Assembly: GCA_965203125.1 (NCBI GenBank)
Contig: CBDBBL010000018.1
Location: forward strand, 90,806 to 154,805
Reading direction: 5' to 3'
DNA length: 64,000 bases
DNA from: Gammaproteobacteria bacterium
Lineage (GTDB): Bacteria > Pseudomonadota > Gammaproteobacteria > CBDBBL01
Part shown: in pieces, positions 48,966-63,039 of the stretch
Position numbering within the stretch: the stretch's first letter is position 1
Layout of the letters: each line of letters opens with the position of its first letter
Program-made: the position numbers and the translations under genes
The notes under the pieces: model-generated
The model's input: only the letters and a program-made list of their open reading frames with translations
Told to the model about the DNA's origin: nothing
Databases searched by the model: none

Positions 48966-49493
48966 TTAGTATGTAGCACACCCTGCTGCCAACGCCGCCC
49001 CCAACTTTCTTAAAGCAAGCAACACTGGAAAATTCCAAGCCGTCACTAACAAAACAACACCCACTGACTGATAGCTCGTTTGATAACGCATACCGGTCTG
49101 ATTATTAACAATCACTTGATCATGAAGTTGGCCAACTAGTTGATTAATTGCATCTATCGACGATTGTAAACAAGCCATACCATATTTGATTTCTTTCTTA
49201 GCTTCTGAAAGAGGTTTGCCTTGTTCTTGAGTCAACAATCTCGCTAATGAATCACTATTGTTCTCAATCAGCAGCATCCACCGAGTTAACAACTCTGAAC
49301 GATCTTGAATAGTCGCACCTTGCCAAGCATTCAATGATGATTGAGCAGAATCAATTGCACAAATAGCATCATCTTCTGCCATATCAGCTACCTGAGCAAT
49401 TATTTTATTATTTGCAGGATCTTTAACAGTAAAGGTCTTACCCGAAAGCGAACCGACCCACTTCCCGTTGATTAATCCTTTCTTAGATTCCAT
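48966..49493 (-). pseudogene. Aldehyde dehydrogenase, N-terminal fragment (175 codons)
   Basis: INGKWV.., TAWNFPVLLALRKLGAALAAGC then premature stop at the IS6 junction; catalytic Glu/Cys region missing. Confidence 0.85.
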
Positions 49494-49646: not shown

Positions 49647-51095
49647 TTACCCTAAGAAAATCATGCGGCAGGCATTAAATAAAACACTAGGAAATATACC
49701 TAGGAACAATAGTAATATGCTATTGATAGCAATCGCAATTTGCACATCCAAAGGTAATTTGATTGGCATGGGATCAGTATCATTTTTTTCGAAATACATC
49801 ACTTTCACAAGATTTAGATAATAGTAAGCACCCACAATGGCAAATAAAAGCGCGACCACAACCAACCAAATCATACCCACATTGACCAAAGCTTCTAACA
49901 CGCTTAACTTAGCCATAAACCCAACCAATGGTGGAATACCAGCCATTGAAAATAAAATAAGCAACCATAAAAATGCAAACCAGCTATGTCGTTGATTCAA
50001 TCCTTTTATATCGTCAATGGTTTCAATACAAACACCCCGACGATTCATGATCGTTAACAGTCCCAACGCTGCTGTTGTCATCATCACATAACTAATCATA
50101 TAAAAAACAGAAGCAGCATATCCTTGCAATGTTCCTGCCACAAAACCTAACAGCATATAACCAATATGAGCAATCGACGAATAAGCAAACAGGCGCTTTA
50201 GATTTTTTTGGCTAAGTGCCACAATATTCCCTAGTCCAATAGAAAGCACTGAGATTAAAATCAAAATTTCATGCCACTGAATACTCAAACTCGGCAATGC
50301 ATCATCAAGCAGACGAAACAACATCGCCAATACAGCAAGTTTAGGAACACTCGCAACAAACAAAGTGACACTCATAGGCGCACCATCATAAACATCTGGC
50401 ACCCAAGAATGAAATGGAGCAGCACCTAGTTTAAATAAGACAGCAATCAAGATAAACACTAGCCCTATGAGCAACATGAGGTTATGCATTAACTGCTTAG
50501 TGGCTATGATGCTAGCAATTTTCGATAAATCCAACGCACCACAACTCCCATACACTAAAGAGAAGCCATATAATAATAGCGCAGAAGCTAATGCACCCAT
50601 GATAAAATATTTAGTTGCCGACTCTAAAGCTCGATCATCTTTTCGCCTCAACGCAACTAATGCATAGATAGGCAAAGACAACAGCTCCAATCCTAGAAAT
50701 AATGTGATGAGGTTTTGACCTGAAATTAAAACCATCATGCCCAGTACGGACAATAAAGAAAGCACATAATACTCACCAACGGCTCCCTGTTTCGTTGCCA
50801 CTCCTAGGGTCTCAATCACATAATCACGAGAATACACAAACACAAACCCAGTCAGCAATAACAGCATAAACTTTAAAAGCACCGCTAAATGGTCAACAAT
50901 AAATAAGTCATGAAAGGCTAATTGTTTATTCACGTTCATGAGTTGGCACACACTGAAAAATGCCAACACAAGTGTTAATTGAGCTAGGAGGTAAATCCAA
51001 CGTTGCACTTTCTCTTGGCAACAAACATGCAACATCAAAATGCTACAAGCACCGATTAAAATAATAATTTCAGGTAACGCGAGTAATCCATTCAT
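49647..51095 (-). CDS. nuoN: NADH-quinone oxidoreductase subunit N
   Basis: 482 aa, 14-TM antiporter-like subunit; last gene of nuo operon. Confidence 0.93.
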   Translation of the reverse strand: MNGLLALPEIIILIGACSILMLHVCCQEKVQRWIYLLAQLTLVLAFFSVCQLMNVNKQLAFHDLFIVDHLAVLLKFMLLLLTGFVFVYSRDYVIETLGVATKQGAVGEYYVLSLLSVLGMMVLISGQNLITLFLGLELLSLPIYALVALRRKDDRALESATKYFIMGALASALLLYGFSLVYGSCGALDLSKIASIIATKQLMHNLMLLIGLVFILIAVLFKLGAAPFHSWVPDVYDGAPMSVTLFVASVPKLAVLAMLFRLLDDALPSLSIQWHEILILISVLSIGLGNIVALSQKNLKRLFAYSSIAHIGYMLLGFVAGTLQGYAASVFYMISYVMMTTAALGLLTIMNRRGVCIETIDDIKGLNQRHSWFAFLWLLILFSMAGIPPLVGFMAKLSVLEALVNVGMIWLVVVALLFAIVGAYYYLNLVKVMYFEKNDTDPMPIKLPLDVQIAIAINSILLLFLGIFPSVLFNACRMIFLG

Positions 51096-51105
51096 TCAGT
51101 TATTC

Positions 51106-52626
51106 CTAACGCATACTTAAAGTTAAAATGTGTGCAACCGTTTTATGTAGCACCTCTAATAACGGCTGAGGATATAATCCTATCAGAAACACCATACCTG
51201 CCAATAAAATGAAGACAATCAGTTCAACACCACATATATCAGATAATCCAGCAATTTCTTGGGTCTTCACCTCACCAAAAAAGACTCGTTTAAACATCCA
51301 TAAAGTATACACTGCACTGATCACTAAAGTTGAAGCAGCCATTAGCGTCACCCAAAAACTCACATGAAAACTTGCCAATAAGATCATGAATTCACCAACA
51401 AAACTAGAGGTTCCTGGTAGCCCAACATTCGCCATCGCAAATACCATAAAAAATGCAGTAAAAATCGGCATTGACTTTGCAATTCCACCAAACGCATTAA
51501 TATCACGGGTTTTCATGCGTTGATATAACATTCCAAAACCAATAAACATCGCTCCTGCACCAAAGGCATGTGAAATCATTTGTACCATTGCACCCTCGAG
51601 GCTCATGTCTGCGTTGATTACACTCCCTTGATCTACGTGGAAAAAGATCAGATAGGCCATAAAACAACCCAGGGTTACAAAGCCCATATGAGCAACCGAG
51701 GAATAAGCAATTAATTTCTTCATATCTGTTTGCGCAATCGCAATCAATCCAATATAAACAATCGCAATCAGTGAAAGAATAATCATCATCCAAGCAAACT
51801 GATGGCAAGCATGCGGAACAATAGGCAAACTAAAACGTAAGAAACCATAGCCTCCAAGTTTAAGCATTAAAGCAGCTAGAATAACAGAGCCGCCCGCAGG
51901 TGCTTCAGTATGGGCATCAGGCAACCAAGTATGAAATGGCCACATCGGCATTTTCACCGCAAAGGCTAAAAAGAAGGCCAAAAACAACCAAAATTCTTCT
52001 CTCATCGTTAGATGTGCTTGATAAAATTCTGCAATATTAAAACTGCCCGTCTTGTAGTGTAAATACAACAGTGCCACTAACATGAACAATGAGCCTAGAA
52101 AGGTAAATAAGAAAAATTTAATAGAAGCATAGGAACGGTTCTTTCCTCCCCAAATTCCAATACTCAAATACATTGGAATCAACATCGCTTCCCAAAAAAT
52201 GTAGAACAACATCGCATCTGTGGCACAAAACACACCCACAACCATTGCCTGCATTAATAAGAAAATGGCTAAATATTGCGACACCTTCTCATGGACCATG
52301 CGCCAACTACCCAAAATAACCACAACAGAAGTAAAGCAAGTTAAGGTCACCATCGGCATCGAAATGCCATCAACCCCAAGTCCGTAATGAATGCCAAAAC
52401 TACTCAGCCAAGTGAGCTGCTCTGTATATTGCATATGCCAACTATGCACATTAAAACCATGCCACATAACACCACAAAGTGCTAAGGAAATCAGCGTTGT
52501 CATCAACGCTAAATAACGTGCATTTTGATGACGAGATTCTCCGCGAAACCCTAATAAGATGATACTACTACACACGGGCAACCAAATAAGCAAACTCAAC
52601 AAAAGATGATTTCCTAACGCATTCAT
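51106..52626 (-). CDS. nuoM: NADH-quinone oxidoreductase subunit M
   Basis: 506 aa antiporter-like; WLPDAHTEAP motif. Confidence 0.95.
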   Translation of the reverse strand: MNALGNHLLLSLLIWLPVCSSIILLGFRGESRHQNARYLALMTTLISLALCGVMWHGFNVHSWHMQYTEQLTWLSSFGIHYGLGVDGISMPMVTLTCFTSVVVILGSWRMVHEKVSQYLAIFLLMQAMVVGVFCATDAMLFYIFWEAMLIPMYLSIGIWGGKNRSYASIKFFLFTFLGSLFMLVALLYLHYKTGSFNIAEFYQAHLTMREEFWLFLAFFLAFAVKMPMWPFHTWLPDAHTEAPAGGSVILAALMLKLGGYGFLRFSLPIVPHACHQFAWMMIILSLIAIVYIGLIAIAQTDMKKLIAYSSVAHMGFVTLGCFMAYLIFFHVDQGSVINADMSLEGAMVQMISHAFGAGAMFIGFGMLYQRMKTRDINAFGGIAKSMPIFTAFFMVFAMANVGLPGTSSFVGEFMILLASFHVSFWVTLMAASTLVISAVYTLWMFKRVFFGEVKTQEIAGLSDICGVELIVFILLAGMVFLIGLYPQPLLEVLHKTVAHILTLSMR

Positions 52627-54590
52627 AATACGACAACTCCCACCAATAACAATAACAGCCCAAGCACCATAATCAATGCATAATGGTAAAGATACCCTGT
52701 CTGCAAGCGTTTCAGTTGTAGAGACATCTTATTAAAAACTCGCCCAGCTCCATTAATAATACCAGCATCCAACCATTTCATATCAGCCACATAAAATAAA
52801 TAATTGGCTAGCCGACTAATCGGTCGCACCAATACCAACTGATTGAAAGCATCAAAACCATACTTATGACTCAATAATGCATACCCCCACTGGCAATGCT
52901 TTCTCACTTTCGCAGGAATATCGGTGCATATACAGTAACTCAACCATGCCACAAAAACCCCTAAAAGCATCATCCAGAATGGTAGATGTTGCACACTTTC
53001 TAGAACAAGACTCCATACACCATGGAACTGCGCTTTAACATGTAAAAAGCTCGCATGAATTGGCAACACCATCACTGCATTTGCTAACCAAGCATGCTTA
53101 CTATATAACAAAGGAACTGCCCATATTACCCCTAAACCCACAGATAAAATCGCTAACACAATTAACGGCACAGTAATCACCCAAGAAGACTCCTTAATGT
53201 GATCTTTCACTGTATCATCACTGCGATTGACACCATGAAAAGTCATAAAGAACGCACGAAAAATATATAAACTTGTCACGAATGCACCCAAAGTTAAGCA
53301 CCAGTAAGCATATCCACTTGACCACAAGTGTGACACTGAAACAGCTTCAATAATCGCATCTTTAGAATAGAAACCTGCAAAAGGAGGTACAGCCGCTAGT
53401 GCCAACGCACCAATTAAGAAAGTAACATAAGTAATTGGCATTTTACGACGTAACCCACCCATCTTACGCATATCTTGTTCATGGTGACAAGCGACAATCA
53501 CAGAACCTGCTGCCAAAAATAATAAAGCTTTAAATGCCGCATGAGTTGCCAAATGAAAAATACCTGCCGAAAAAGCAGATGTGCCATTAGCAGCCATCAT
53601 ATAACCCAGTTGCGACATGGTTGAGTAGGCAATCACACGTTTAATATCATTCTGCACAATCCCTACCAAGCCTAAAAATAAAGCACCTGTAGAGCCCACC
53701 AGTAATATCATATTGAGCGCAGTCGTTGAATACTCAAATAGTGGTGATAAACGAGCAACCAAGTACACCCCAGCTGTCACCATCGTTGCCGCATGAATCA
53801 GTGCAGAAATAGGCGTTGGCCCTTCCATCGACTCTGGCAACCAAACATGCAATGGAATCTGTGCTGATTTTGCCATCGCACCAATAAACAACAAAATACA
53901 AATCATACTAGCCACTGACCAGTGCCAGTTCAGAAAGTGAGGAAAGATGGTAACAGTGAGATGTGCTAATTTTGGTGCAACGGTGAATAAATCGGTATAT
54001 TGTAATGAACCTGCATATTTCAACACAGCCGCAATCCCTAAGAGAAATGCTACATCACCAATTCTGTTGACAATAAAAGCTTTAAAGCTTCCCACCGCTA
54101 CAGAATCTTTGTGGTACCAAAATCCAATCAACAAATAAGACACCAAGCCAACCCCTTCCCATCCAAAAAACAGCTGCAAAAAGTTATCGGCAGTGACCAA
54201 TGTCAACATCATAAAAGTGAACAGCGACATATAACTGAAAAAACGTGCAAATCCAAGATCTCCACGCATATACCCCACACTGTATAAATGCACCAGCGTT
54301 GAAACAAGCGTCACCACCAACAGCATAATCACCGTCAGATGATCAACCAAAACTGCCGCACGTAGGTGGATATGTCCAACATCTACCCATTGGTACAATA
54401 GAAAACGATGTGCAGGCAAATTGTGGTGTGTGACCTGGTAGAAAAGAATAATGCTTGCCACGGTTGAAACAGTCATCAAGATGATGGTAATAACTGCCGT
54501 CAATGAATCTCCAAGTTTTTTACCTAAAAATCCTGCAATCACTGCGCTTAGAAGAGGTGTTAATAGCGCAATGAGTAGAAGTGATTTCAT
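52623..54590 (-). CDS. nuoL: NADH-quinone oxidoreductase subunit L
   Basis: 655 aa antiporter-like; WLPESMEGPTPISALIHAATMV. Confidence 0.95.
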   Translation of the reverse strand: MKSLLLIALLTPLLSAVIAGFLGKKLGDSLTAVITIILMTVSTVASIILFYQVTHHNLPAHRFLLYQWVDVGHIHLRAAVLVDHLTVIMLLVVTLVSTLVHLYSVGYMRGDLGFARFFSYMSLFTFMMLTLVTADNFLQLFFGWEGVGLVSYLLIGFWYHKDSVAVGSFKAFIVNRIGDVAFLLGIAAVLKYAGSLQYTDLFTVAPKLAHLTVTIFPHFLNWHWSVASMICILLFIGAMAKSAQIPLHVWLPESMEGPTPISALIHAATMVTAGVYLVARLSPLFEYSTTALNMILLVGSTGALFLGLVGIVQNDIKRVIAYSTMSQLGYMMAANGTSAFSAGIFHLATHAAFKALLFLAAGSVIVACHHEQDMRKMGGLRRKMPITYVTFLIGALALAAVPPFAGFYSKDAIIEAVSVSHLWSSGYAYWCLTLGAFVTSLYIFRAFFMTFHGVNRSDDTVKDHIKESSWVITVPLIVLAILSVGLGVIWAVPLLYSKHAWLANAVMVLPIHASFLHVKAQFHGVWSLVLESVQHLPFWMMLLGVFVAWLSYCICTDIPAKVRKHCQWGYALLSHKYGFDAFNQLVLVRPISRLANYLFYVADMKWLDAGIINGAGRVFNKMSLQLKRLQTGYLYHYALIMVLGLLLLLVGVVVL

Positions 54591-54671
54591 CGATTAACCT
54601 AACGTTATTATGAATTGGCGACAGTATCGCGAAAAAGTGGGGTTACTTCAAGGGTTGAGCTATATTGAACA

Positions 54672-55088
54672 CTATTTTGTTGCAGGAAAGAGGTATCTAA
54701 CCACTCCCATTAATAAACCAATGGTATTCACAACTGTTGTTCCTAAAAATGTCATCATGACGTTGTCGTCTATGTGAAAATACCAATGATGATTGACGCA
54801 CATTAAAGTCGTAGCAACTAATAAATAGCCCCCAACCAAATAAAAAATCTTAGATGTCCATTTTTTTCGAGCATCTTTGTTATCTTTGAATTGTTCATTT
54901 TCCAAATCAACTCTGGAATTTTCCATTTCTAAACGTTGGTTCTCTAACCCAAGCTTATCCAAATCATGCTTACGTACAGATTGCAAATACTCTTTTGTCT
55001 CCCTATCTGAGTCAACGCTAGCACTATCGACAATCGATATATGATCATCTAAAAGCTCCAATGATTGCCCTTTATCATTCAAGCTCAT
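54672..55088 (-). CDS. Small membrane protein (138 aa): acidic coiled-coil N-half, two C-terminal TM helices; candidate toxin partner of the DUF4065 protein
   Basis: LENQRLEMENSRVDLENEQF then IFYLVGGYLLVATTLMCV and TFLGTTVVNTIGLLMGVV; TAATG overlap with the upstream gene. Confidence 0.5.
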   Translation of the reverse strand: MSLNDKGQSLELLDDHISIVDSASVDSDRETKEYLQSVRKHDLDKLGLENQRLEMENSRVDLENEQFKDNKDARKKWTSKIFYLVGGYLLVATTLMCVNHHWYFHIDDNVMMTFLGTTVVNTIGLLMGVVRYLFPATK

Positions 55089-55621
55089 TAATCAGTTTTC
55101 TCCACATCATCTGGTTTCAAAAACTTGCTAAAATATCCAGCCAACTCACTATCATCAATTACCGTTGATCGAACATTCTTACCACCTTTTTTATTCCAAA
55201 ACTTATCCCAAGGACTCTCTTCCTCATGTGTCCAGTTAGAAAGTTGGATACCCGTATATTTACCAAAAGATCTCCATACCGCCTGCAATATCTTTATCAT
55301 CTTTGTATCCGTACTTGGCACAGTAGGGTCCTCATACTCGGTAACATCATCATCTAGCCCTATCAACATTTCATCCTGAGGTAATAATTTAGAAATAGGC
55401 CGATTTCCATTCACTTTAATTTCATGATATAAATCACGAATAACAGGCCCATATTTCCATGCCTCAACAACCGCATCACATATTGGTTCCTGAGGGTTTA
55501 TTGCCAAACTCAACCCTTGAGCAACATAAACCAGCTTCATTAGCTTCATCTGCTCAATTGGATTTCCTTCGAGAATTCCTTTCTGAATAAACCAATTCGC
55601 AACTGCTCTAACTTGATACAT
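55088..55621 (-). CDS. Panacea/DUF4065 (GepA/SocA-like) antitoxin-domain protein
   Basis: MYQVRAVANWFIQKG...QMKLMKLVYVAQGLSLA...EAWKYGPVIRDLY matches the DUF4065 signature from memory; ATG 55621 with AGGAG 6 nt upstream. Confidence 0.7.
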   Translation of the reverse strand: MYQVRAVANWFIQKGILEGNPIEQMKLMKLVYVAQGLSLAINPQEPICDAVVEAWKYGPVIRDLYHEIKVNGNRPISKLLPQDEMLIGLDDDVTEYEDPTVPSTDTKMIKILQAVWRSFGKYTGIQLSNWTHEEESPWDKFWNKKGGKNVRSTVIDDSELAGYFSKFLKPDDVEKTD

Positions 55622-55633
55622 AACCATCTCCTG

Positions 55634-55657
55634 CAAATGACATTAATTCGTCATTTG
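55634..55657. promoter_or_regulatory. Perfect palindrome abutting the RBS of the DUF4065 gene (candidate autoregulatory operator)
   Basis: caaatgac-attaattc-gtcatttg; TTGAAA -35-like hexamer just upstream on the minus strand (55668-55663). Confidence 0.5.
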
Positions 55658-55769
55658 ACAATTTCAATCTAACATAAACCAAAGAAAAAAGTAATACGGT
55701 AACATAACTACTCATTGTGTCATCCTGCGCGTAGCCCCAGAATCTATATTCACCCTAGAAACTTGAATA

Positions 55770-55814
55770 CTAGACTCCGCGATTTCGCGCAAAATAACGA
55801 GTGAGCAACTATAA
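55770..55814. repeat. About 45-bp repeat, copy 2 (see 31142)
   Basis: ctagactccgcgatttcgcgcaaaataacgagtgagcaactata; lies just downstream of nuoK, at the start of the inserted cassette. Confidence 0.7.
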
Positions 55815-55827
55815 ACTCGCAAGCTTA

Positions 55828-56157
55828 CTAACCTTTCAACAAGCTCAAATCTTTGACTGCAATGGTATGACGCTTGCGATATAACGTAACAATAATTGCT
55901 AACCCAATCGCTGACTCAGCAGCGGCTACTGTTAAAATAAAGAAGACAAAAATTTGCCCCATAATTTGATGTAATGACGCTGAAAAGGCAATAAAGTTTA
56001 AGTTCACTGCCAATAACATCAGTTCAATACACATCAACACACGTATCAAGTTTTCACGATTCAACAAAATCCCCGCTAAACTGATCACAAAAACAAGACT
56101 ACTTACAATCAGGTAAGCATTGATCGTTAGTGGTGCATTCAACCATTGATTCATCAT
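55828..56157 (-). CDS. nuoK: NADH-quinone oxidoreductase subunit K
   Basis: 109 aa, 3 TM; [19 protein letters not shown]. Confidence 0.93.
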
Positions 56158-56159
56158 AT

Positions 56160-56756
56160 TTATGGCTCCATATCCACTAAAGTTAAATGATCTTTTTTAT
56201 TCGCTTTTAACTGCTCGCTAATTTGCTGTGATTTACGCTTTCTTGCGCCACGAAAAGTCACACTAATCGCAGCAATCATAGCCACCAATAAAATCACTGC
56301 CGCCAGCTCAAAGGCTAAAACATACTGTGTATATAAAACATGCCCTATCGCCTGTGTATTACTATGGTGAACAGCAATTTCTGTAAAAATATTTTGCTTA
56401 ACTGCAAAATGGCTATGAGAGAAAACACCCAGTAAAATCCCAAAAATCAAAGCACACACCAATAGCACCACTGGCAAAGAAGCTGACCATTTTCTCGATG
56501 ATTCCTGACTACCTCCCATACTCATCATCATGACAACAAATAAAAACAATGTCATCACTGCACCCACGTAAACAAAAATCAATGCCAACCCTAAAAATTC
56601 AGCTTGTAATAATATCCACAGCACACTAGAGGCAAAAAAACAAAGCACTAAAAATAGAGCAGACTGCACTGCATGGCGACTAAACACAACCATAAAAGCA
56701 GCTACAATCAGAACGCTTGAAAATGTATAAAAAACGAGATTGGTAACATTTAACAT
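56160..56756 (-). CDS. nuoJ: NADH-quinone oxidoreductase subunit J
   Basis: 198 aa, 5 TM; position between nuoI and nuoK. Confidence 0.9.
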
Positions 56757-56778: not shown

Positions 56779-57270
56779 TTAACGATACTTTGCATCTATT
56801 TGATGATTTGCAGCAATCTTTGCTTCATAACGATCTCCAATTGCCAACAACTTTTCTTTAGTAAAAATATTCTCACCTCGATTTTCTAAGTGATAGTGAC
56901 TTTCATCAGTCAAGACAATGGAATCAACAGGACAGGCTTCCTCACAAAAACCACAATTAATACATTTGAAAACATCAATATCATATCGTGTTGTCCGTCG
57001 TGTACCATCATCAGCACGTGGTTCAGCTTCGATAAAAATTGCCTGGGCAGGACAAACTGCTTCACATAATTTACAACCAATACAACGCTCTTCACCATTC
57101 GGATAACGTCTCAACGCTAACATACCACGAAACCGAGGAGAAACAGGGGTTTCTTCTTCAGGGTACTGAACGGTTACTTTTGGCTTAAAGAAGTACTTCA
57201 ACGTAATACGCAGACCTTGAAATAATTCAAATAAAGTGAAACTTTTAATCCATTTTTTTATTGTATTCAT
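56779..57270 (-). CDS. nuoI: NADH-quinone oxidoreductase subunit I
   Basis: 163 aa; two 4Fe-4S motifs [12 protein letters not shown] and [12 protein letters not shown]. Confidence 0.96.
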
Positions 57271-57286
57271 AGTGATATCTTAACCC

Positions 57287-57465
57287 AGAAATATACACGA
57301 AATAAGTTCCACAATTGATCGCTTAAAATGTATTCATTTTTAAATTTTTTGCAATCAAAAAATCCGCGCAATAGCTGGCTATTTCTGTGGTTTTTCTCAA
57401 TTAAAAAATTCAAAACTAAACTCATTTTATGCACCAATTGCAGAACTTATTTCGTGTATATTTCT
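57287..57465. mobile_element. MITE-like element, family D (179 bp), overlapping the 3' end of nuoH
   Basis: Perfect 23-bp TIRs agaaatatacacgaaataagttc / gaacttatttcgtgtatatttct; central gcaatagctggctattt core. Confidence 0.85.
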
Positions 57466-58488
57466 AAACCACGGCGCTAAATGAAACTGAATCATCAATG
57501 TGACCACTACCAACCACACTAAGGTTACTGGAATGAGAACTTTCCACCCTAAGTGCATAATCTGATCATAACGATAACGCGGAAATGTAGCGCGAATCCA
57601 CAAGTAAATAAACAAAAATAGTCCTGTCTTCAAAACCAACCAAACAAATCCGGGCACAAATGAAAACAATACACCTAAGACAGGCACGTTGGTGAACGGA
57701 GATAACCAACCACCTAAGAACAATAATGCTGCAAGCATAGATACCAAAATCATACAGGCATACTCTGCCAAAAAGAAAACTGCAAACATAATTCCAGAAT
57801 ACTCAACATGGAACCCAGCGACAATCTCAGACTCACCCTCTGCCATATCAAATGGTGCGCGATTAGTTTCTGCCACCGCAGAGATCCAGTAAACAACAAA
57901 TAGAGGAAATAACGGCAACCAGAACCAATGAAGGAACCCACCTTGCTGTGCTAATACAATATGAGATAAATTCATACTACCAGCAGCCATCAGCACACCT
58001 ACTAATGCAAAGCCCATCGCAATCTCATAAGAAATGGTTTGTGCAGCCGCTCTCATTGCACCAAAAAATGCATATTTTGAATTAGATGCCCACCCTGCAA
58101 TTAATGTGCCATACACCCCCAAAGAAGTCATCGCAAACAAGTATAAAACACCTGCATTAATATTGGAAAGCACCACCCCTTTTGAGAATGGAACAACTGC
58201 CCATGCTGCTAATGCAGGAGCAATCGTCAATACTGGCGCAACAATAAATAAATAATGATTGGATGCCTTAGGCACAATCAACTCTTTAAAAAACAACTTG
58301 AGTCCATCTGCCAGAGGCTGTAACAAACCCTTAAAGCCAACGCGGTTCGGTCCTATACGCGACTGCATATAACCAATCACTTTTCTCTCGGCAAGGGTTA
58401 ATAACGCCACACACACCATCAATGGCACAACAATGCCAAGAATTTTAACTATAATCCAAATTAAATCCCACAACGCTGCTAGCGTCAT
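57427..58488 (-). CDS. nuoH: NADH-quinone oxidoreductase subunit H (last 12 codons and stop encoded by the MITE)
   Basis: 353 aa; [33 protein letters not shown] motifs. Confidence 0.95.
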
Positions 58489-58847
58489 ACCAACGACCTC
58501 TTGCTAATTTCTAGCCTATTCATTTGCGCCACATTATATACTCATCACACATGAAGATACAGGATTTTAGTATCATACTTTTTGCAAAATATCAGTTCGA
58601 AAGCTTTTGCAACAATGGTGCGAGCACTAAAACTCTCAAACATAATTTTGATAAAAACTATTGAGTTACCTTCCTCTAAATACAATAAGCAGATACTCAC
58701 CACAGACGAAAATGCCGAGTTTTTAGTAAACAACAGAAACTCATCCTCAATTCGCATTGCATCAAATTAAATGACACTATCTAGGGTCTGTTGCCTCATT
58801 TAAAATCACACTACTTGATTGAGTTTGTGTGTACTAAGGAGGCGCTG

Positions 58848-59237
58848 ATGGCAAAGCTGATGAGTCTACAAGCTCGGGAGAAAATGTTAGAAAGCATTAA
58901 AGAAAAATATCACTCTGGTGACTGGAAAACAAAGCATAAATTGATTGATGGCTTTGTAGCAACAACTCGATATGAGCATAAGCATGCTATTAAACTGCTT
59001 AATCGAAAGAAAGCTACAATAACAGAAGATTCCAAACATCACGGCAAAAGAGCTACTCGAGAAACTGATGAAAAAATATCCTAGACAGTTTTACGAAGGT
59101 CATATTAGAACATTGCAAAGGAGGCTTAGTGAGCTACGCAAAGAAATTGACCAAAGGGAGCTAAAGTATCAGCAGCTGATGATAAGCAAGAAATTCATGA
59201 CAACCAACCCTGTTGAAGGTATCTTAATGAGTGATCC
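58848..59237 (+). pseudogene. Degraded transposase (N-terminal and C-terminal pieces in different frames, core deleted), truncated by IS3
   Basis: MAKLMSLQAREKMLESIKEKY..LIDGFVATTRYEHKHAIKLLN and ..GHIRTLQRRLSELRKEI resemble the ends of integrase-core transposases (family not resolved). Confidence 0.5.
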
Positions 59238-60141
59238 TGCCCCCCAAAATGGGACATGAAAGTCACGCGACTTTATCAATCTGAATAATACGTTCAAATT
59301 GATCTGGAGTCACGTAATTAATGGCGCTATGACGCCTACGCGTATTAAAATAGGCTTCAATATACTCAAAGATGGATGATCTAGCTTGCTCCCTAGTGAC
59401 ATAATTTTCTTGGTAAACAAGCTCCACCTTTAAAGAATGGAAGAAGCTTTCACACGCAGCATTATCATAGCAGCAACCTTTAGCACTCATAGAAGATATC
59501 AACCCATGTCGCTCTAGCTTTAGGCACTAAACCCATTACTTGCATACGTTTACTCACTGTTTGGCGCTTGATCGGGAATGCATGGTCATCTTTCATTTCT
59601 TCCATAATTCTGGTTGAGCCGTAACGCCCTTTATGTTCAGCAAAGATCTTCATTATCAGGTGATCTGCTTTCTGATAATGCTTGTCTCTAGCGCTATAGG
59701 GATTGCGCAAACAACGATAGTAGGATGATGTGCTCACGTTTAACATCTGTGCCATCAGGTCTACACGACAGGCATGACGATTGTTTTTAATGAATGCGTA
59801 TTTCACAGCTTTTCGCTCGCAAAATACGCTGCCGCCTTTTTTAGTATGTCTCGCTCCTGCTCCGTGCGCTTCAGTGCTTTTCGCAGTCGTTTGACCTCTG
59901 ACTCTAGGGATTTGATTTTACTTTTCCCTGCCTGTGTGCTTGCTGTTTCTGGCATTGTTTTTTTCACCCATGCGTATAATGTCTTGTAATGAATACCTAA
60001 GTTCTTAGCTAATTTGCTGATAGGCTCATCTGATTCCAACGCCAGTTTAACGCTTTCTGTTTTAAATTCCTCGCTGTATGTTTGATATCGACTCATTTTG
60101 GTTCTCCTGTTCTATTTTTTGGAGTCCCATTTCGGGGTACA
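59238..60141 (-). mobile_element. IS3-family insertion sequence with internal deletion in orfB (904 bp)
   Basis: IRs tgccccccaaaatgggac (59238) and reverse complement of the other end tgtaccccgaaatgggac (15/18 match), TG..CA ends; orfA 59803..60096; orfB N-part 59480..59806 and C-part 59263..59502 (..SMSAKGCCYDNAACESFF..) with the DDE core missing. Confidence 0.85.
59836..59842 (-). promoter_or_regulatory. IS3 programmed -1 frameshift heptamer A AAA AAG at the orfA/orfB overlap
   Basis: orfA frame CTA AAA AAG GCG; -1 frame reads ..KKGGSVFCERKAVKYAFIKNN.. joining orfB. Confidence 0.7.
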
Positions 60142-60233
60142 AGATCATTTGAGTATTGGTACTGGTATTGGTGGATATGATCATGGTCAGAGCATGACAT
60201 AAGCTAAGCTTTGGTCAATAAGGGTTGAGAGGG

Positions 60234-60497
60234 TTAATGATAGCGACATCCAATTTGACAGTGTTGTTTAACCAGTTCTTTGTGGAGTTGGATCGCTCCT
60301 GTTACATTGAACTGTTGTATTAAGTGATGCTGAATCGATTGAGCATGCTGGGTATCGATCTCCATCGATTTTGCGATAATGGCTAAATTCTTCTCGGAAA
60401 GGAAATGCCATAAAAAATGACTTTGTTTGGCTGAGAGTTGGATGCTGGACTTGTCGATGATGGCATAGAATCTGTGATGTTGAGGTTGTGAGGGCAT
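60234..60497 (-). CDS. Small degenerate LuxR/GerE-type HTH protein (87 aa from ATG 60497)
   Basis: LSAKQSHFLWHFLSEKNLAIIAKSMEIDTQHAQSIQHHLIQQFNV fits the LS-x-(R/K)-(E/Q)..IA..(L/M)-x-I...V..H...I..K spacing; GGAG 8 nt upstream. Confidence 0.5.
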   Translation of the reverse strand: MPSQPQHHRFYAIIDKSSIQLSAKQSHFLWHFLSEKNLAIIAKSMEIDTQHAQSIQHHLIQQFNVTGAIQLHKELVKQHCQIGCRYH

Positions 60498-60679
60498 GCT
60501 GATTCTCCGAGTTGTGTGTTGATTGACGACCTCCACCCCGTCTATCGATTCTATTTATAGTGACATTCGTTGTTTGAATTGTGACAATTGCCTGGAAAGA
60601 CCCAAAACATGTCAGAAATCTCCTTATTCAGGTTCCGTTTGTACTTTGGCGAGGACGACGGAACTTGAGTTTTTATCGT

Positions 60680-61066
60680 TTAACCTGCTGTTTTTAAATG
60701 CTTTAATTGATCTCTATTGATTAAATCATTTACACCGCAACTCCACGCTACTTGTTTTAAATCTTTCAGTTTTGGCTGACTAAATTTTATTTTCACATTA
60801 TTTAGATAATACTCCACTGTTCGCTCTGATAATGACAGTTGCTTTCCTGTGTCTTTCATGCTCTTTCCTCTCATTACTAATAACAAACATTCTGCCTCTC
60901 TACGTGTTAGATGGATTTCTCTGCTTGCCATTTTTACGGGAAACAGCCCTTGCTCAGTTCTACAATAACGCCCACCTACTTTGTGAGCTATTTGATCCAA
61001 ATCAGCTTGTGATTCTTGCTTGTAATGTCCAGCTTCTACTGCTTTTACTAAATTATTCCAATACAT
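60680..61066 (-). CDS. LuxR/GerE-family transcriptional regulator (128 aa)
   Basis: LTRREAECLLLVMRGKSMKDTGKQLSLSERTVEYYLNNVKIKF; AAAGGAG RBS. Confidence 0.8.
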   Translation of the reverse strand: MYWNNLVKAVEAGHYKQESQADLDQIAHKVGGRYCRTEQGLFPVKMASREIHLTRREAECLLLVMRGKSMKDTGKQLSLSERTVEYYLNNVKIKFSQPKLKDLKQVAWSCGVNDLINRDQLKHLKTAG

Positions 61067-61116
61067 CTTTTGCTCCTTTTTGATTGCAATTTTTTAATCT
61101 CGTTTTCATAACTTGC

Positions 61117-61287: not shown

Positions 61288-61638
61288 TTTTTCACCTGTT
61301 ACACTTGTGTATTATTTAGGTTGGACACGCTGTTCATTCTTTGGCTATTCCTTCTGCCTATATCATCCTTGCTCGCAACGTATCCAACGGTTTGTTGCTC
61401 CTTTCCCTGTTCATGCTCTTCTCACAGATTTGCAATGTGTGTAGTAAAACGTATGTGAAGATTTTTATAAATAGCATAATATATCTAAATAAATAGCATT
61501 GTTATTTTGTATCATGAATTCCATGTGTAAAAAATGATATATAAAAATATCTAGTTAAAATTGAGTTATAAAATTGCATCATCTTTAATGATGGGGTAAG
61601 GTGATATAAAATAAAGATTAGTAGTGGCTGTATCTATT

Positions 61639-63039
61639 ATGAAAAAAATACATCAAGAAAAAGTAGAACGCCTTTTTTGGAAAGATATTAGAAGCCAAGT
61701 GATGCAAGTAAATCCTGAGATTACAAAAATTATCGATGACATAGATCCTAGTGAAAATTTTCCTTTATACCGAGTTCGTTATTCATATGGGGATTTGATT
61801 GTTGATAAAGGTAAATTTAATCTTCCAAGCGCTGATGGCGAGATGATTGCAATTGATGACCCTTTAATTAGCAATTTATTACAAGAAGATTTGGGATATC
61901 CTGATAATGGGCAACCATCAGGGATTGTACTTAAAAATTCAATTCAAGAATCTTTAGTTTGCGGAGAAGAGTTGCTTCCGCTTTCTGTTGCCAAAGCAGG
62001 TAGTATTTGTGCATTATGGCATGAATTAGATATTGTCATGTCTTATCACCCAATAAAAATATTTAGTGTTACTGCAGGTGCCAATGCCATTTACATGCTC
62101 CCAAATATTGGTAATCACTTGAAACATAAAAAACTAAAGAGTCGTTACAATTTCATGGAAACCACTCCGAAAAGCCTTCAAGAACACTGGAGCCTCTTTA
62201 AGTCGATTGCAAAATACTCAGCCCGTAACGGAGATGGTTGGGAGGTGGAAATGCTGTTTTTCTCTAAGCATTGGATCACAAAAGTAAAGCAAGCACTCAA
62301 AAATAAAAAAGATTCTTCTTGGTTAGCCTTATATACATTTTTTATCGAAAGGGTGTGGAAAAGTTCCGCTGTAGAAAGAAACCAGATTTTCTACGATTAT
62401 GCGTTATCTCTTGCTCAAAGACAAAAACATTTGAAGCCAAATCCATATTTGACTGATACTGCTAAATATTTACTATTGATTGGGTTAGGTGTGGCTGTTG
62501 GTTTCGGTGCAGCAGTTGATGAGGAGCTATGTCCAACAAGCACAATTCAACAAGCATATTTAGAGAGCTATCATCTAGAGTCTGCTCCAATCATACTCGT
62601 ACCTAAACACTTCTCTTTGCTTGATGAGCTTGATAATTCTCCTGTTTACTACTCTTTACAAATGCCAACAACTTTCTTCTTTTCACCTAAATCACGCAAG
62701 CTATCAACCACCCTAGAAGACTTAGACGAAATTAAACATATACTCAATACGTTCTTAGCAGAAATACGTAAGAAGAATTTAGGTGTTGAAGGTACAGTGA
62801 TGGAAACGTTAGCGAATAATGTGAAATTTGAATACTTTCACACTAAACCAGAAATGAATGAAGATATTCAGTATGCGGGCAACATTCCAAATCTTGATCA
62901 AGACATACAATATGTTTTAAACAAATTTCAGCCTCATGGTTTTCCCTATACTGGTAGTTTTTCCCGAGGTTGTATTCGTTTGACAAAAAATAATAAAATC
63001 AACGACTATGAAGATAAAGCAACCGAGCCTACTGTATAG
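61639..63039 (+). CDS. Conserved protein of unknown function, family copy 2 (466 aa from ATG 61639; ORF-track start GTG 61624)
   Basis: Paralog of 23622..24953: VMQVNPEITKIIDDI, EMLFFSKHW, YYSLQMPT, SRGCIRL. Confidence 0.75.
   Translation: MKKIHQEKVERLFWKDIRSQVMQVNPEITKIIDDIDPSENFPLYRVRYSYGDLIVDKGKFNLPSADGEMIAIDDPLISNLLQEDLGYPDNGQPSGIVLKNSIQESLVCGEELLPLSVAKAGSICALWHELDIVMSYHPIKIFSVTAGANAIYMLPNIGNHLKHKKLKSRYNFMETTPKSLQEHWSLFKSIAKYSARNGDGWEVEMLFFSKHWITKVKQALKNKKDSSWLALYTFFIERVWKSSAVERNQIFYDYALSLAQRQKHLKPNPYLTDTAKYLLLIGLGVAVGFGAAVDEELCPTSTIQQAYLESYHLESAPIILVPKHFSLLDELDNSPVYYSLQMPTTFFFSPKSRKLSTTLEDLDEIKHILNTFLAEIRKKNLGVEGTVMETLANNVKFEYFHTKPEMNEDIQYAGNIPNLDQDIQYVLNKFQPHGFPYTGSFSRGCIRLTKNNKINDYEDKATEPTV

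Follow-up and report, generated by a model that had tools for sequence, protein, structure and literature searches.

The closest described relative of the element reported here is the PanA-PanT (PanAT) toxin-antitoxin pair of Escherichia coli. Kurata et al. (PNAS 2022, PMC8832971) validated WP_000287252.1 as an antitoxin with the toxin WP_000019185.1 (their Table 1), and their supplementary table lists the pair, with a spacing of 22 nt, under toxin cluster T3. The E. coli PanT stops transcription, translation and replication together, depolarizes the membrane and admits SYTOX Green, and it is neutralized by its own PanA (PMC8832971). Here we analyse a stretch of 64,000 nt of gammaproteobacterial DNA from contig CBDBBL010000018.1 (hereafter, the window, whose coordinates are used throughout), in which two genes lie between nuoK and nuoL of the complex I operon. 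The insert is probably a functional, translationally coupled type II PanA-PanT module with a T3-type membrane toxin, in which a depolarizing PanT would be neutralized by PanA. The position is unusual, and it recurs at least in part in a second, distantly related bacterium.

The interval between nuoK and nuoL measures 1,237 bp, matching the gap of 1.24 kb given in an earlier first-pass annotation of this DNA. The same annotation had described two genes that are co-oriented with nuo and overlap by 1 nt, and had quoted peptide motifs for the 177-aa product; the coordinates are borne out on the sequence and the motifs are present in the translation. The GC content is 37.3% in the insert and 38–40% in the flanking nuo genes. 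The features of the insert and its immediate flanks are as follows.

55828-56157, minus strand: nuoK, 109 aa, the upstream flank of the insert (PF00420, E 1.2e-29; 65% identity to the nuoK of L087, one of the four closest available nuoL loci)
54591-55827, minus strand: nuoK-nuoL interval, that is the insert, 1,237 bp, with two open reading frames (ORFs) co-oriented with nuo
55088-55621, minus strand: panA, 177 aa, with ATG at 55621 and AGGAG at 55632-55628, six nt before the start codon
54672-55088, minus strand: panT-like gene, 138 aa, whose start codon overlaps the panA stop by 1 nt (TAATG)
54591-54671, minus strand: panT-nuoL spacer, 81 nt, with a candidate sigma-70-like motif inside
52623-54590, minus strand: nuoL, 655 aa, the downstream flank (PF00361/PF00662)

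The product of panA was compared with Pfam profiles and matched SocA_Panacea (PF13274, DUF4065) with 72.8 bits against a cut-off of 25.7 (E 5.6e-20), which upholds the DUF4065 call of the first-pass annotation. The match covers profile positions 1–112 of 113 and residues 27–138 of PanA. No other Pfam match was returned for the protein, which has no extra N-terminal domain and no N-terminal helix-turn-helix (HTH). A match was also found to phrog_1281 (E 1e-38). Against the NCBIfam equivalog SocA_antitoxin (NF047745) the score is 93.1 bits (E 1.5e-26), far under the cut-off of 190, and PanA is therefore a Panacea protein rather than a SocA orthologue. In the Caulobacter SocA-SocB system (type VI), SocA has the same Panacea domain as the window PanA, but the partner here is a membrane protein with two transmembrane (TM) helices and not the SocB toxin, so that the pair does not belong to that system. 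SocA is a ClpXP adaptor, whereas other PanAs neutralize without ClpXP or Lon (PMC8832971). A sequence search of the PDB gave no relative of either PanA or the 138-aa protein, and no second copy of PanA or PanT was found within the window.

The 138-aa protein has a net-acidic N-terminal half (19 D/E versus 13 K/R) and, by hydropathy, two hydrophobic segments at about residues 80–99 and 110–133, as expected from the acidic half and the two C-terminal TM helices described in the first pass. An AlphaFold model built with nine sequences has a long helix (residues 28–100) folded back on a second helix (residues 107–132), with moderate confidence (pLDDT, the predicted local distance difference test, 71). 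The protein falls into no Pfam, NCBIfam or PADLOC family. A phmmer search of 1.84 billion cluster representatives returned 519 relatives at E ≤ 1e-3, of which those among the matches listed are 93–190 aa long. Aligned members follow a common plan, with a variable charged or coiled-coil N-terminal half, a conserved R-x-x-Y/W, a first hydrophobic helix and a C-terminal motif of the pattern D-x-V-(L/M)-x-x-(L/F)-(L/I)-G-(T/S)-T-x-x-N-x-I-G-L-x-x-x-V-x-(R/K)-Y-L-F-P, the family motif being LGTTvvNtIGLlmgVvRYLFP. Metagenome contigs were scanned twice, with the toxin alignment and with the toxin alone, and gave no match.

The window protein and its 149 best relatives served to build a family hidden Markov model (HMM). 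The window protein scores 126 bits against this profile and the E. coli PanT partner 51.5 bits (E 3.7e-17), with an alignment on the latter that starts in the coiled-coil region and takes in both membrane helices; the maximum over 500 shuffles, each preserving composition separately for the N and C parts, was 7.4 bits. Several family members also reach the E. coli PanT directly by BLASTP (best E 9e-10). By sequence similarity, this places the 138-aa protein with PanT cluster T3 of Kurata et al. (PMC8832971). The designation as a novel, apparently new membrane toxin in the first-pass annotation does not survive the 519 representative-cluster relatives and the profile match to the E. coli PanT. 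No Pfam or NCBIfam model covers the T3-type PanT family, despite its large size of 519 clusters at 50% identity.

A tblastn search of phage genomes with the window PanA returned 128 records. The gene matched in the record of Escherichia phage PhiR47_1 (31% identity, E 2e-27) is labelled 'PanA antitoxin' by its depositors, and the next gene 'PanT toxin'. The same locus is found in 79 of 5,426 complete E. coli chromosomes. In three of the four chromosome records examined the RefSeq accession of PanA is WP_000287252.1, with WP_000019187.1, WP_021563277.1 or WP_000019186.1 as the partner 22 nt downstream, and the fourth record has other alleles of both genes. Because the PanA accession and the spacing are shared and the accession numbers are adjacent, we infer that the validated toxin WP_000019185.1 belongs to this locus as a further allele. 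No Pfam family covers the E. coli PanT, which matches phrog_13343. The E. coli pair is located at the end of a lambdoid prophage, where its neighbours are PrtN-family genes, exonuclease genes and a fragment of a tRNA-dihydrouridine synthase; the validated pair was entered as 'NotPhage' by Kurata et al. (PMC8832971).

The E. coli and window pairs have the same antitoxin-first two-gene layout. Both PanAs are stand-alone Panacea proteins without an N-terminal domain, at 31% identity, and both toxins combine a charged N-terminal half with two C-terminal TM helices and the common motif LGT(S/T)T..(N/S)..GL...V...LF. The window toxin is shorter (138 versus 182 aa), the genes overlap by 1 nt in the window and lie 22 nt apart in E. 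coli, and the window pair is inside the complex I operon whereas the E. coli pair is at a prophage end. Two other validated membrane PanTs, those of Bartonella apis (T12) and Helicobacter sp. (T4), were compared by the description in the paper only. As described, these toxins have a charged or coiled-coil N-terminal region followed by C-terminal TM helices, and cause depolarization on expression (PMC8832971); the architecture of the window protein is alike. The physiological effect expected of the window PanT, loss of membrane potential, would also be that of Hok/TisB/HokB-type toxins, among which HokB served Kurata et al. as a comparison toxin (PMC8832971). Those systems, however, are of type I with an RNA antitoxin, and their much smaller single-helix peptides have no sequence relation to the window PanT.

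Contigs carrying seven of the closest PanA homologues were examined for recurrence of the pair. Directly downstream of PanA, a partner of the same family is encoded in six of the seven.

L082: partner of 136 aa (82 bits), between a response regulator gene and typA
L083: partner in an uncalled ORF (82 bits), beside an IS1-like gene
L084 (1-1420): frameshifted PanT copy, directly upstream of the atpI-atpB operon
L085 (1013-1534): partner P0154, adjoining a serine recombinase/resolvase gene
L086: partner P0150
L100: partner P0147, between a copper ATPase gene and cinA

The PanA of the seventh contig (L099) has no partner of this PanT family. The conserved arrangement of two adjacent, co-oriented genes by which PanAT pairs are recognized thus recurs across genomes, being present in the window, in these six contigs and in L001, a second nuo locus described below. 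The recombinase next to the pair in L085 fits mobility of the cassette. PanA partners in Halomonas, Pseudomonas and Helicobacter cinaedi phages lie outside this PanT family (the partner of an H. cinaedi prophage PanA gave no match to the family profile, E 0.2), which fits the known promiscuity of Panacea domains. The L084 PanA is the closest homologue, with 43% identity, and the atpA of L084 is 70% identical to that of the window; in L084, too, the pair adjoins a bioenergetic operon, possibly by coincidence.

The phage records raise the question of whether the pair serves in phage defence or superinfection exclusion, PanAT acting as an abortive-infection system for which the nuo location would be incidental. 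Such a role is compatible with the identification of the pair as a toxin-antitoxin module. It would be in line with the frequency of PanA homologues in temperate phages (the 128 records above), with the prophage-end position of the E. coli pair by PrtN and exonuclease genes, and with the phrog matches of the window PanA and the E. coli PanT; such pairs are also increasingly tied to defence in the toxin-antitoxin literature (PMC10440598). Neither window protein, however, matched a PADLOC-DB 2.0 model at E ≤ 1, no phage or other defence genes lie nearby, and the window toxin has no tblastn match in phage or plasmid collections. The literature consulted reports no defence phenotype for a T3-type PanAT, and we consider a defence role for this pair unlikely.

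The origin of the insertion was assessed from the surrounding nuo genes. Among 5.8 billion proteins, the best relatives of the window nuoL product are only 59–60% identical, and those that are named come from Coxiellaceae, Legionella or unclassified Gammaproteobacteria. In the four closest available nuoL loci (L087, L088, L089 and L090) nuoK and nuoL adjoin, with a spacing of 2–5 bp, and the insertion in the window is therefore derived, in keeping with the view of the first-pass annotation that these genes are normally contiguous. In the same loci nuoG precedes nuoH. That annotation had also allowed for a conserved accessory subunit of complex I, kept inside nuo in all relatives. All four of these loci lack the pair, and homologues also occur outside nuo, so the pair is identified neither as a core nor as an accessory subunit. 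A nuoK search of genome contigs, in which the conserved FILTVAAA pattern predominated, returned only distant relatives (≤71% identity).

The closest relative of the window toxin is P0002, with 52% identity and 113 bits, the next best match having 68 bits. P0002 is encoded on L001, an 827-bp metagenome contig of a second, distantly related organism, which carries in order the C terminus of PanA, the TAATG overlap, PanT, an 80-nt spacer and the start of nuoL. The N terminus of this nuoL product is identical to that of the window at 35 of 49 residues, and the cassettes share 52–56% amino-acid identity. The proportion of differing synonymous sites, 0.74 for PanT and 0.82 for PanA, amounts to saturation. 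Non-synonymous sites differ at a proportion of 0.30 and 0.28, respectively, far under the saturated synonymous change, and both genes are therefore under purifying selection. The insertion appears to be old and to have been kept for long at this site. A search of the literature located no description of a toxin-antitoxin module at the nuoK/nuoL position.

Conservation between the two loci extends to the spacer between panT and nuoL. In a stop-codon-anchored, ungapped comparison 43 of 71 positions are identical, far above the conservation of synonymous sites, and shuffled spacers gave 18.4 ± 3.6 identical positions with a maximum of 33 in 5000. A gapped alignment yields 48 identical positions versus a shuffle mean of 39.9, the gaps inflating random scores. 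The best-kept blocks, CTTGAAsTAA and ATTTTTsGCGATACTrT, combine to a sigma-70-like candidate composed of TTGAAG/TTGAAC (54646–54651), 17 nt and GATACT (54623–54628). This element would most simply be a promoter or leader for nuoL. Its assignment to a generic mobile cassette was rejected, as six other loci lack the motif downstream of PanT, and the element accordingly has the look of an adaptation specific to this locus.

The opposite end of the insert begins with a repeated element, which has a second copy elsewhere in the window.

55770-55827, minus strand: repeated element directly after the nuoK stop, with the core ATTTTGCGCGAAATCGCGGAG at 55775-55795
about 31140-31195: second copy, following the ispH stop codon and preceding a 370-aa gene of no known family

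The first-pass annotation had noted a 45-bp repeat here. The repeat is real, though its extent differs, as BLAST aligns 36 bp at 89% (55770–55805 versus 31142–31177) and a longer alignment, with a 3-nt indel, covers about 55 nt. The 21-nt core ATTTYGCGCGAAATCGCGGAG has exactly two occurrences in the window, versus 0.01 expected, and surrounds the near-palindrome ATTTCGCGCGAAAT. Each copy stands right after the stop of a conserved gene (ispH, nuoK) and before one or more lineage-specific genes (the 370-aa gene; panAT), and the element could be an insertion-junction mark or a protein-binding site. A terminator or structured RNA after nuoK was considered and rejected (folding z +0.8 and +0.4). 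In addition, AGGTTA is found at both borders of the insert, at 55834–55829 (nuoK end) and 54600–54595 (before nuoL). The nuoK-nuoL junction of the relatives reads AAAGGxTxA, 2–5 nt and the start codon. The AGGTTA copies may represent the old junction or ribosome-binding site, duplicated or kept, or microhomology, although six bases prove little.

Both the repeat, which heads this insert as well as another lineage-specific gene after ispH, and the AGGTTA borders would suit a hotspot at nuoK/nuoL into which the window and L001 cassettes had been inserted independently, as would the general mobility of the pair. Separate acquisition does not account well for a spacer that is kept in length (81 versus 80 nt) and in sequence and is not found downstream of PanT elsewhere. 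P0002 is, moreover, by far the closest relative of the toxin (113 versus 68 bits), and the cassettes (52–56% identity) have diverged to a matching extent with nuoL (35 of 49 N-terminal residues identical). We regard independent insertion as very improbable.

In the arrangement that we favour, a single entry of a PanA-PanT module now fixed in the chromosome, the cassette would have reached the nuoK/nuoL junction in a common ancestor of the window and L001 organisms, the former an uncultured gammaproteobacterium with a nuoL like those of Coxiellaceae and Legionella, and both genes would have been held under purifying selection since then. The C-terminal two-helix hairpin of PanT is predicted to enter the inner membrane, where free PanT would dissipate the membrane potential, and PanA, as a stand-alone Panacea protein, would neutralize it by direct binding. 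The TAATG overlap would couple translation of the two genes, so that toxin would be made only together with antitoxin. A consensus scan of the minus strand from 54400 to 56300 reported no promoter-like or terminator-like site, and Rfam gave no match at E ≤ 1 for 54300–56300. Because no terminator is predicted, panAT is probably read through from nuoHIJK, and nuoLMN would probably be expressed by read-through, from the promoter-like element in the spacer, or by both. The biological role of the module may be addiction, phage defence or another, such as one linked to respiration. Proposals from the first pass that the cassette is coupled to complex I expression and that the operon location stabilizes the module are speculation.

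Several observations weigh against this interpretation, in addition to the lack of a PADLOC match. In a single pairwise comparison the window toxin aligns only weakly with the E. coli PanT (34% over 29 residues, E 4e-4); with a weak direct match and a strong profile match, the relation is distant and rests on the profile. The validated accession WP_000019185.1 is absent from the four E. coli records, in which only sister alleles are found. Toxicity and neutralization by direct binding are known only for the E. coli relatives and are here extended by analogy, and eight of the PanT candidates of Kurata et al. were non-toxic in E. coli (PMC8832971). Vertical retention is read from one further locus, L001, whose contig covers the PanT-nuoL junction and not the nuoK-PanA junction. 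The candidate in the spacer agrees with the consensus at 8 of 12 positions, under the threshold of the promoter scan, so that a function for the spacer is deduced from conservation. Upstream of panA, the first-pass annotation had proposed a TTGAAA-type promoter; the hexamer is present, but with 16 nt and TAATGT it forms a site (TTGAAA at 55667–55662) that likewise agrees at only 8 of 12 positions and went unreported by the scan.

The retention of the cassette also invites the view that it has been domesticated, having ceased to be a selfish toxin-antitoxin system, and now acts on complex I or the membrane potential, for example as a proton-motive-force brake or as an assembly or quality-control factor co-expressed with the subunits of the membrane arm; its retention at precisely this site would then be accounted for. 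The PanT-nuoL junction is alike in two organisms that have reached synonymous saturation, purifying selection acts on both genes, the kept spacer is specific to the nuo-embedded copies, and the cassette has come to match the host in GC content; the toxin family, moreover, targets the membrane potential, which is the product of complex I (PMC8832971). Homologous pairs, on the other hand, occur in unrelated contexts (the E. coli prophage end, beside a recombinase gene, between a copper ATPase gene and cinA), the nearest nuo operons lack the pair, and just two lineages with it are known. The retained position is equally expected of an addictive module, the loss of which would be lethal, and of an insert that cannot be excised without damage to nuoK or nuoL. 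Domestication seems to us a doubtful explanation. There is likewise only a small chance, in our estimation, that a vertically inherited depolarizing pair with a dedicated, conserved control region before nuoL has been co-opted in an intracellular-type bacterium, its expression being tied to that of the proton-pumping membrane arm and its toxin becoming a regulated brake on the proton-motive force or on complex I assembly, or a checkpoint.

Since both protein families have already been described, and their E. coli relatives tested, the genes themselves contribute little that is new. The uncommon features are the position of a toxin-antitoxin module inside an essential respiratory operon, between two translationally adjacent genes, its apparent retention under purifying selection past synonymous saturation, and the conserved leader that seems to have arisen before the displaced nuoL. 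The locus offers a natural case for how operons tolerate or repair insertions, and for the question whether a membrane-potential toxin may be wired to the machinery that makes the potential.

A further feature lies upstream of panA.

55634-55657: perfect inverted repeat CAAATGAC-N8-GTCATTTG, between the TTGAAA hexamer (55662-55667) and AGGAG (55628-55632)

This palindrome had been put forward in the first-pass annotation as an operator for autoregulation. It is present as described but is not rare, since perfect inverted repeats with arms of 8 bp or more and a spacer no longer than 14 nt occur in 21 of 319 200-nt tiles of the window (6.6%). No comparable shared inverted repeat was seen in the regions upstream of other PanAs and, given this chance frequency, a shared PanA operator was rejected. 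Probable DNA binding has been ascribed only to PanAs with extra N-terminal domains, HTH or PAD1 (PMC8832971). With a PanA that has no HTH and a repeat that is not shared upstream of other PanAs, autoregulation through the palindrome is unsupported, though not refuted, and its designation as an operator is a guess.

The remaining nuo genes of the window were assigned with Pfam and by tblastn with the L087 subunits.

57427-58488, minus strand: nuoH
56779-57270, minus strand: nuoI
56160-56756, minus strand: nuoJ
51106-52626, minus strand: nuoM, intact
49647-51095, minus strand: nuoN, intact

The genes nuoA-G are not upstream of nuoH, and tblastn with the nuoG of a relative gave zero matches anywhere in the 64 kb of the window. 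The nuo operon therefore has at least one more split. The region from 58489 to 61100 instead holds remnants of an IS3-family (insertion sequence) transposase, with an intact orfA-like gene at 59803–60096 and broken orfB pieces at 59263–59806, and genes for LuxR/GerE-type regulators at 60234–61066. Between nuoH and nuoI lies a non-coding gap of 156 nt (57271–57426), which measures about 200 nt in L089 and only 23 nt in L087. Just downstream of nuoN, a 175-aa ORF (48966–49493) covers only the first 156 of 461 positions of an aldehyde dehydrogenase profile and is therefore a truncated pseudogene. Together with the insertion sequence debris, this suggests a genome in decay or rearrangement. A tRNA search of the window returned none. 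Two ORFs without a Pfam match, at 30027–31139 (the 370-aa gene that follows the second repeat copy) and at 61624–63039 (471 aa), possibly represent lineage-specific genes of effector-like character in a Legionellales-type organism.

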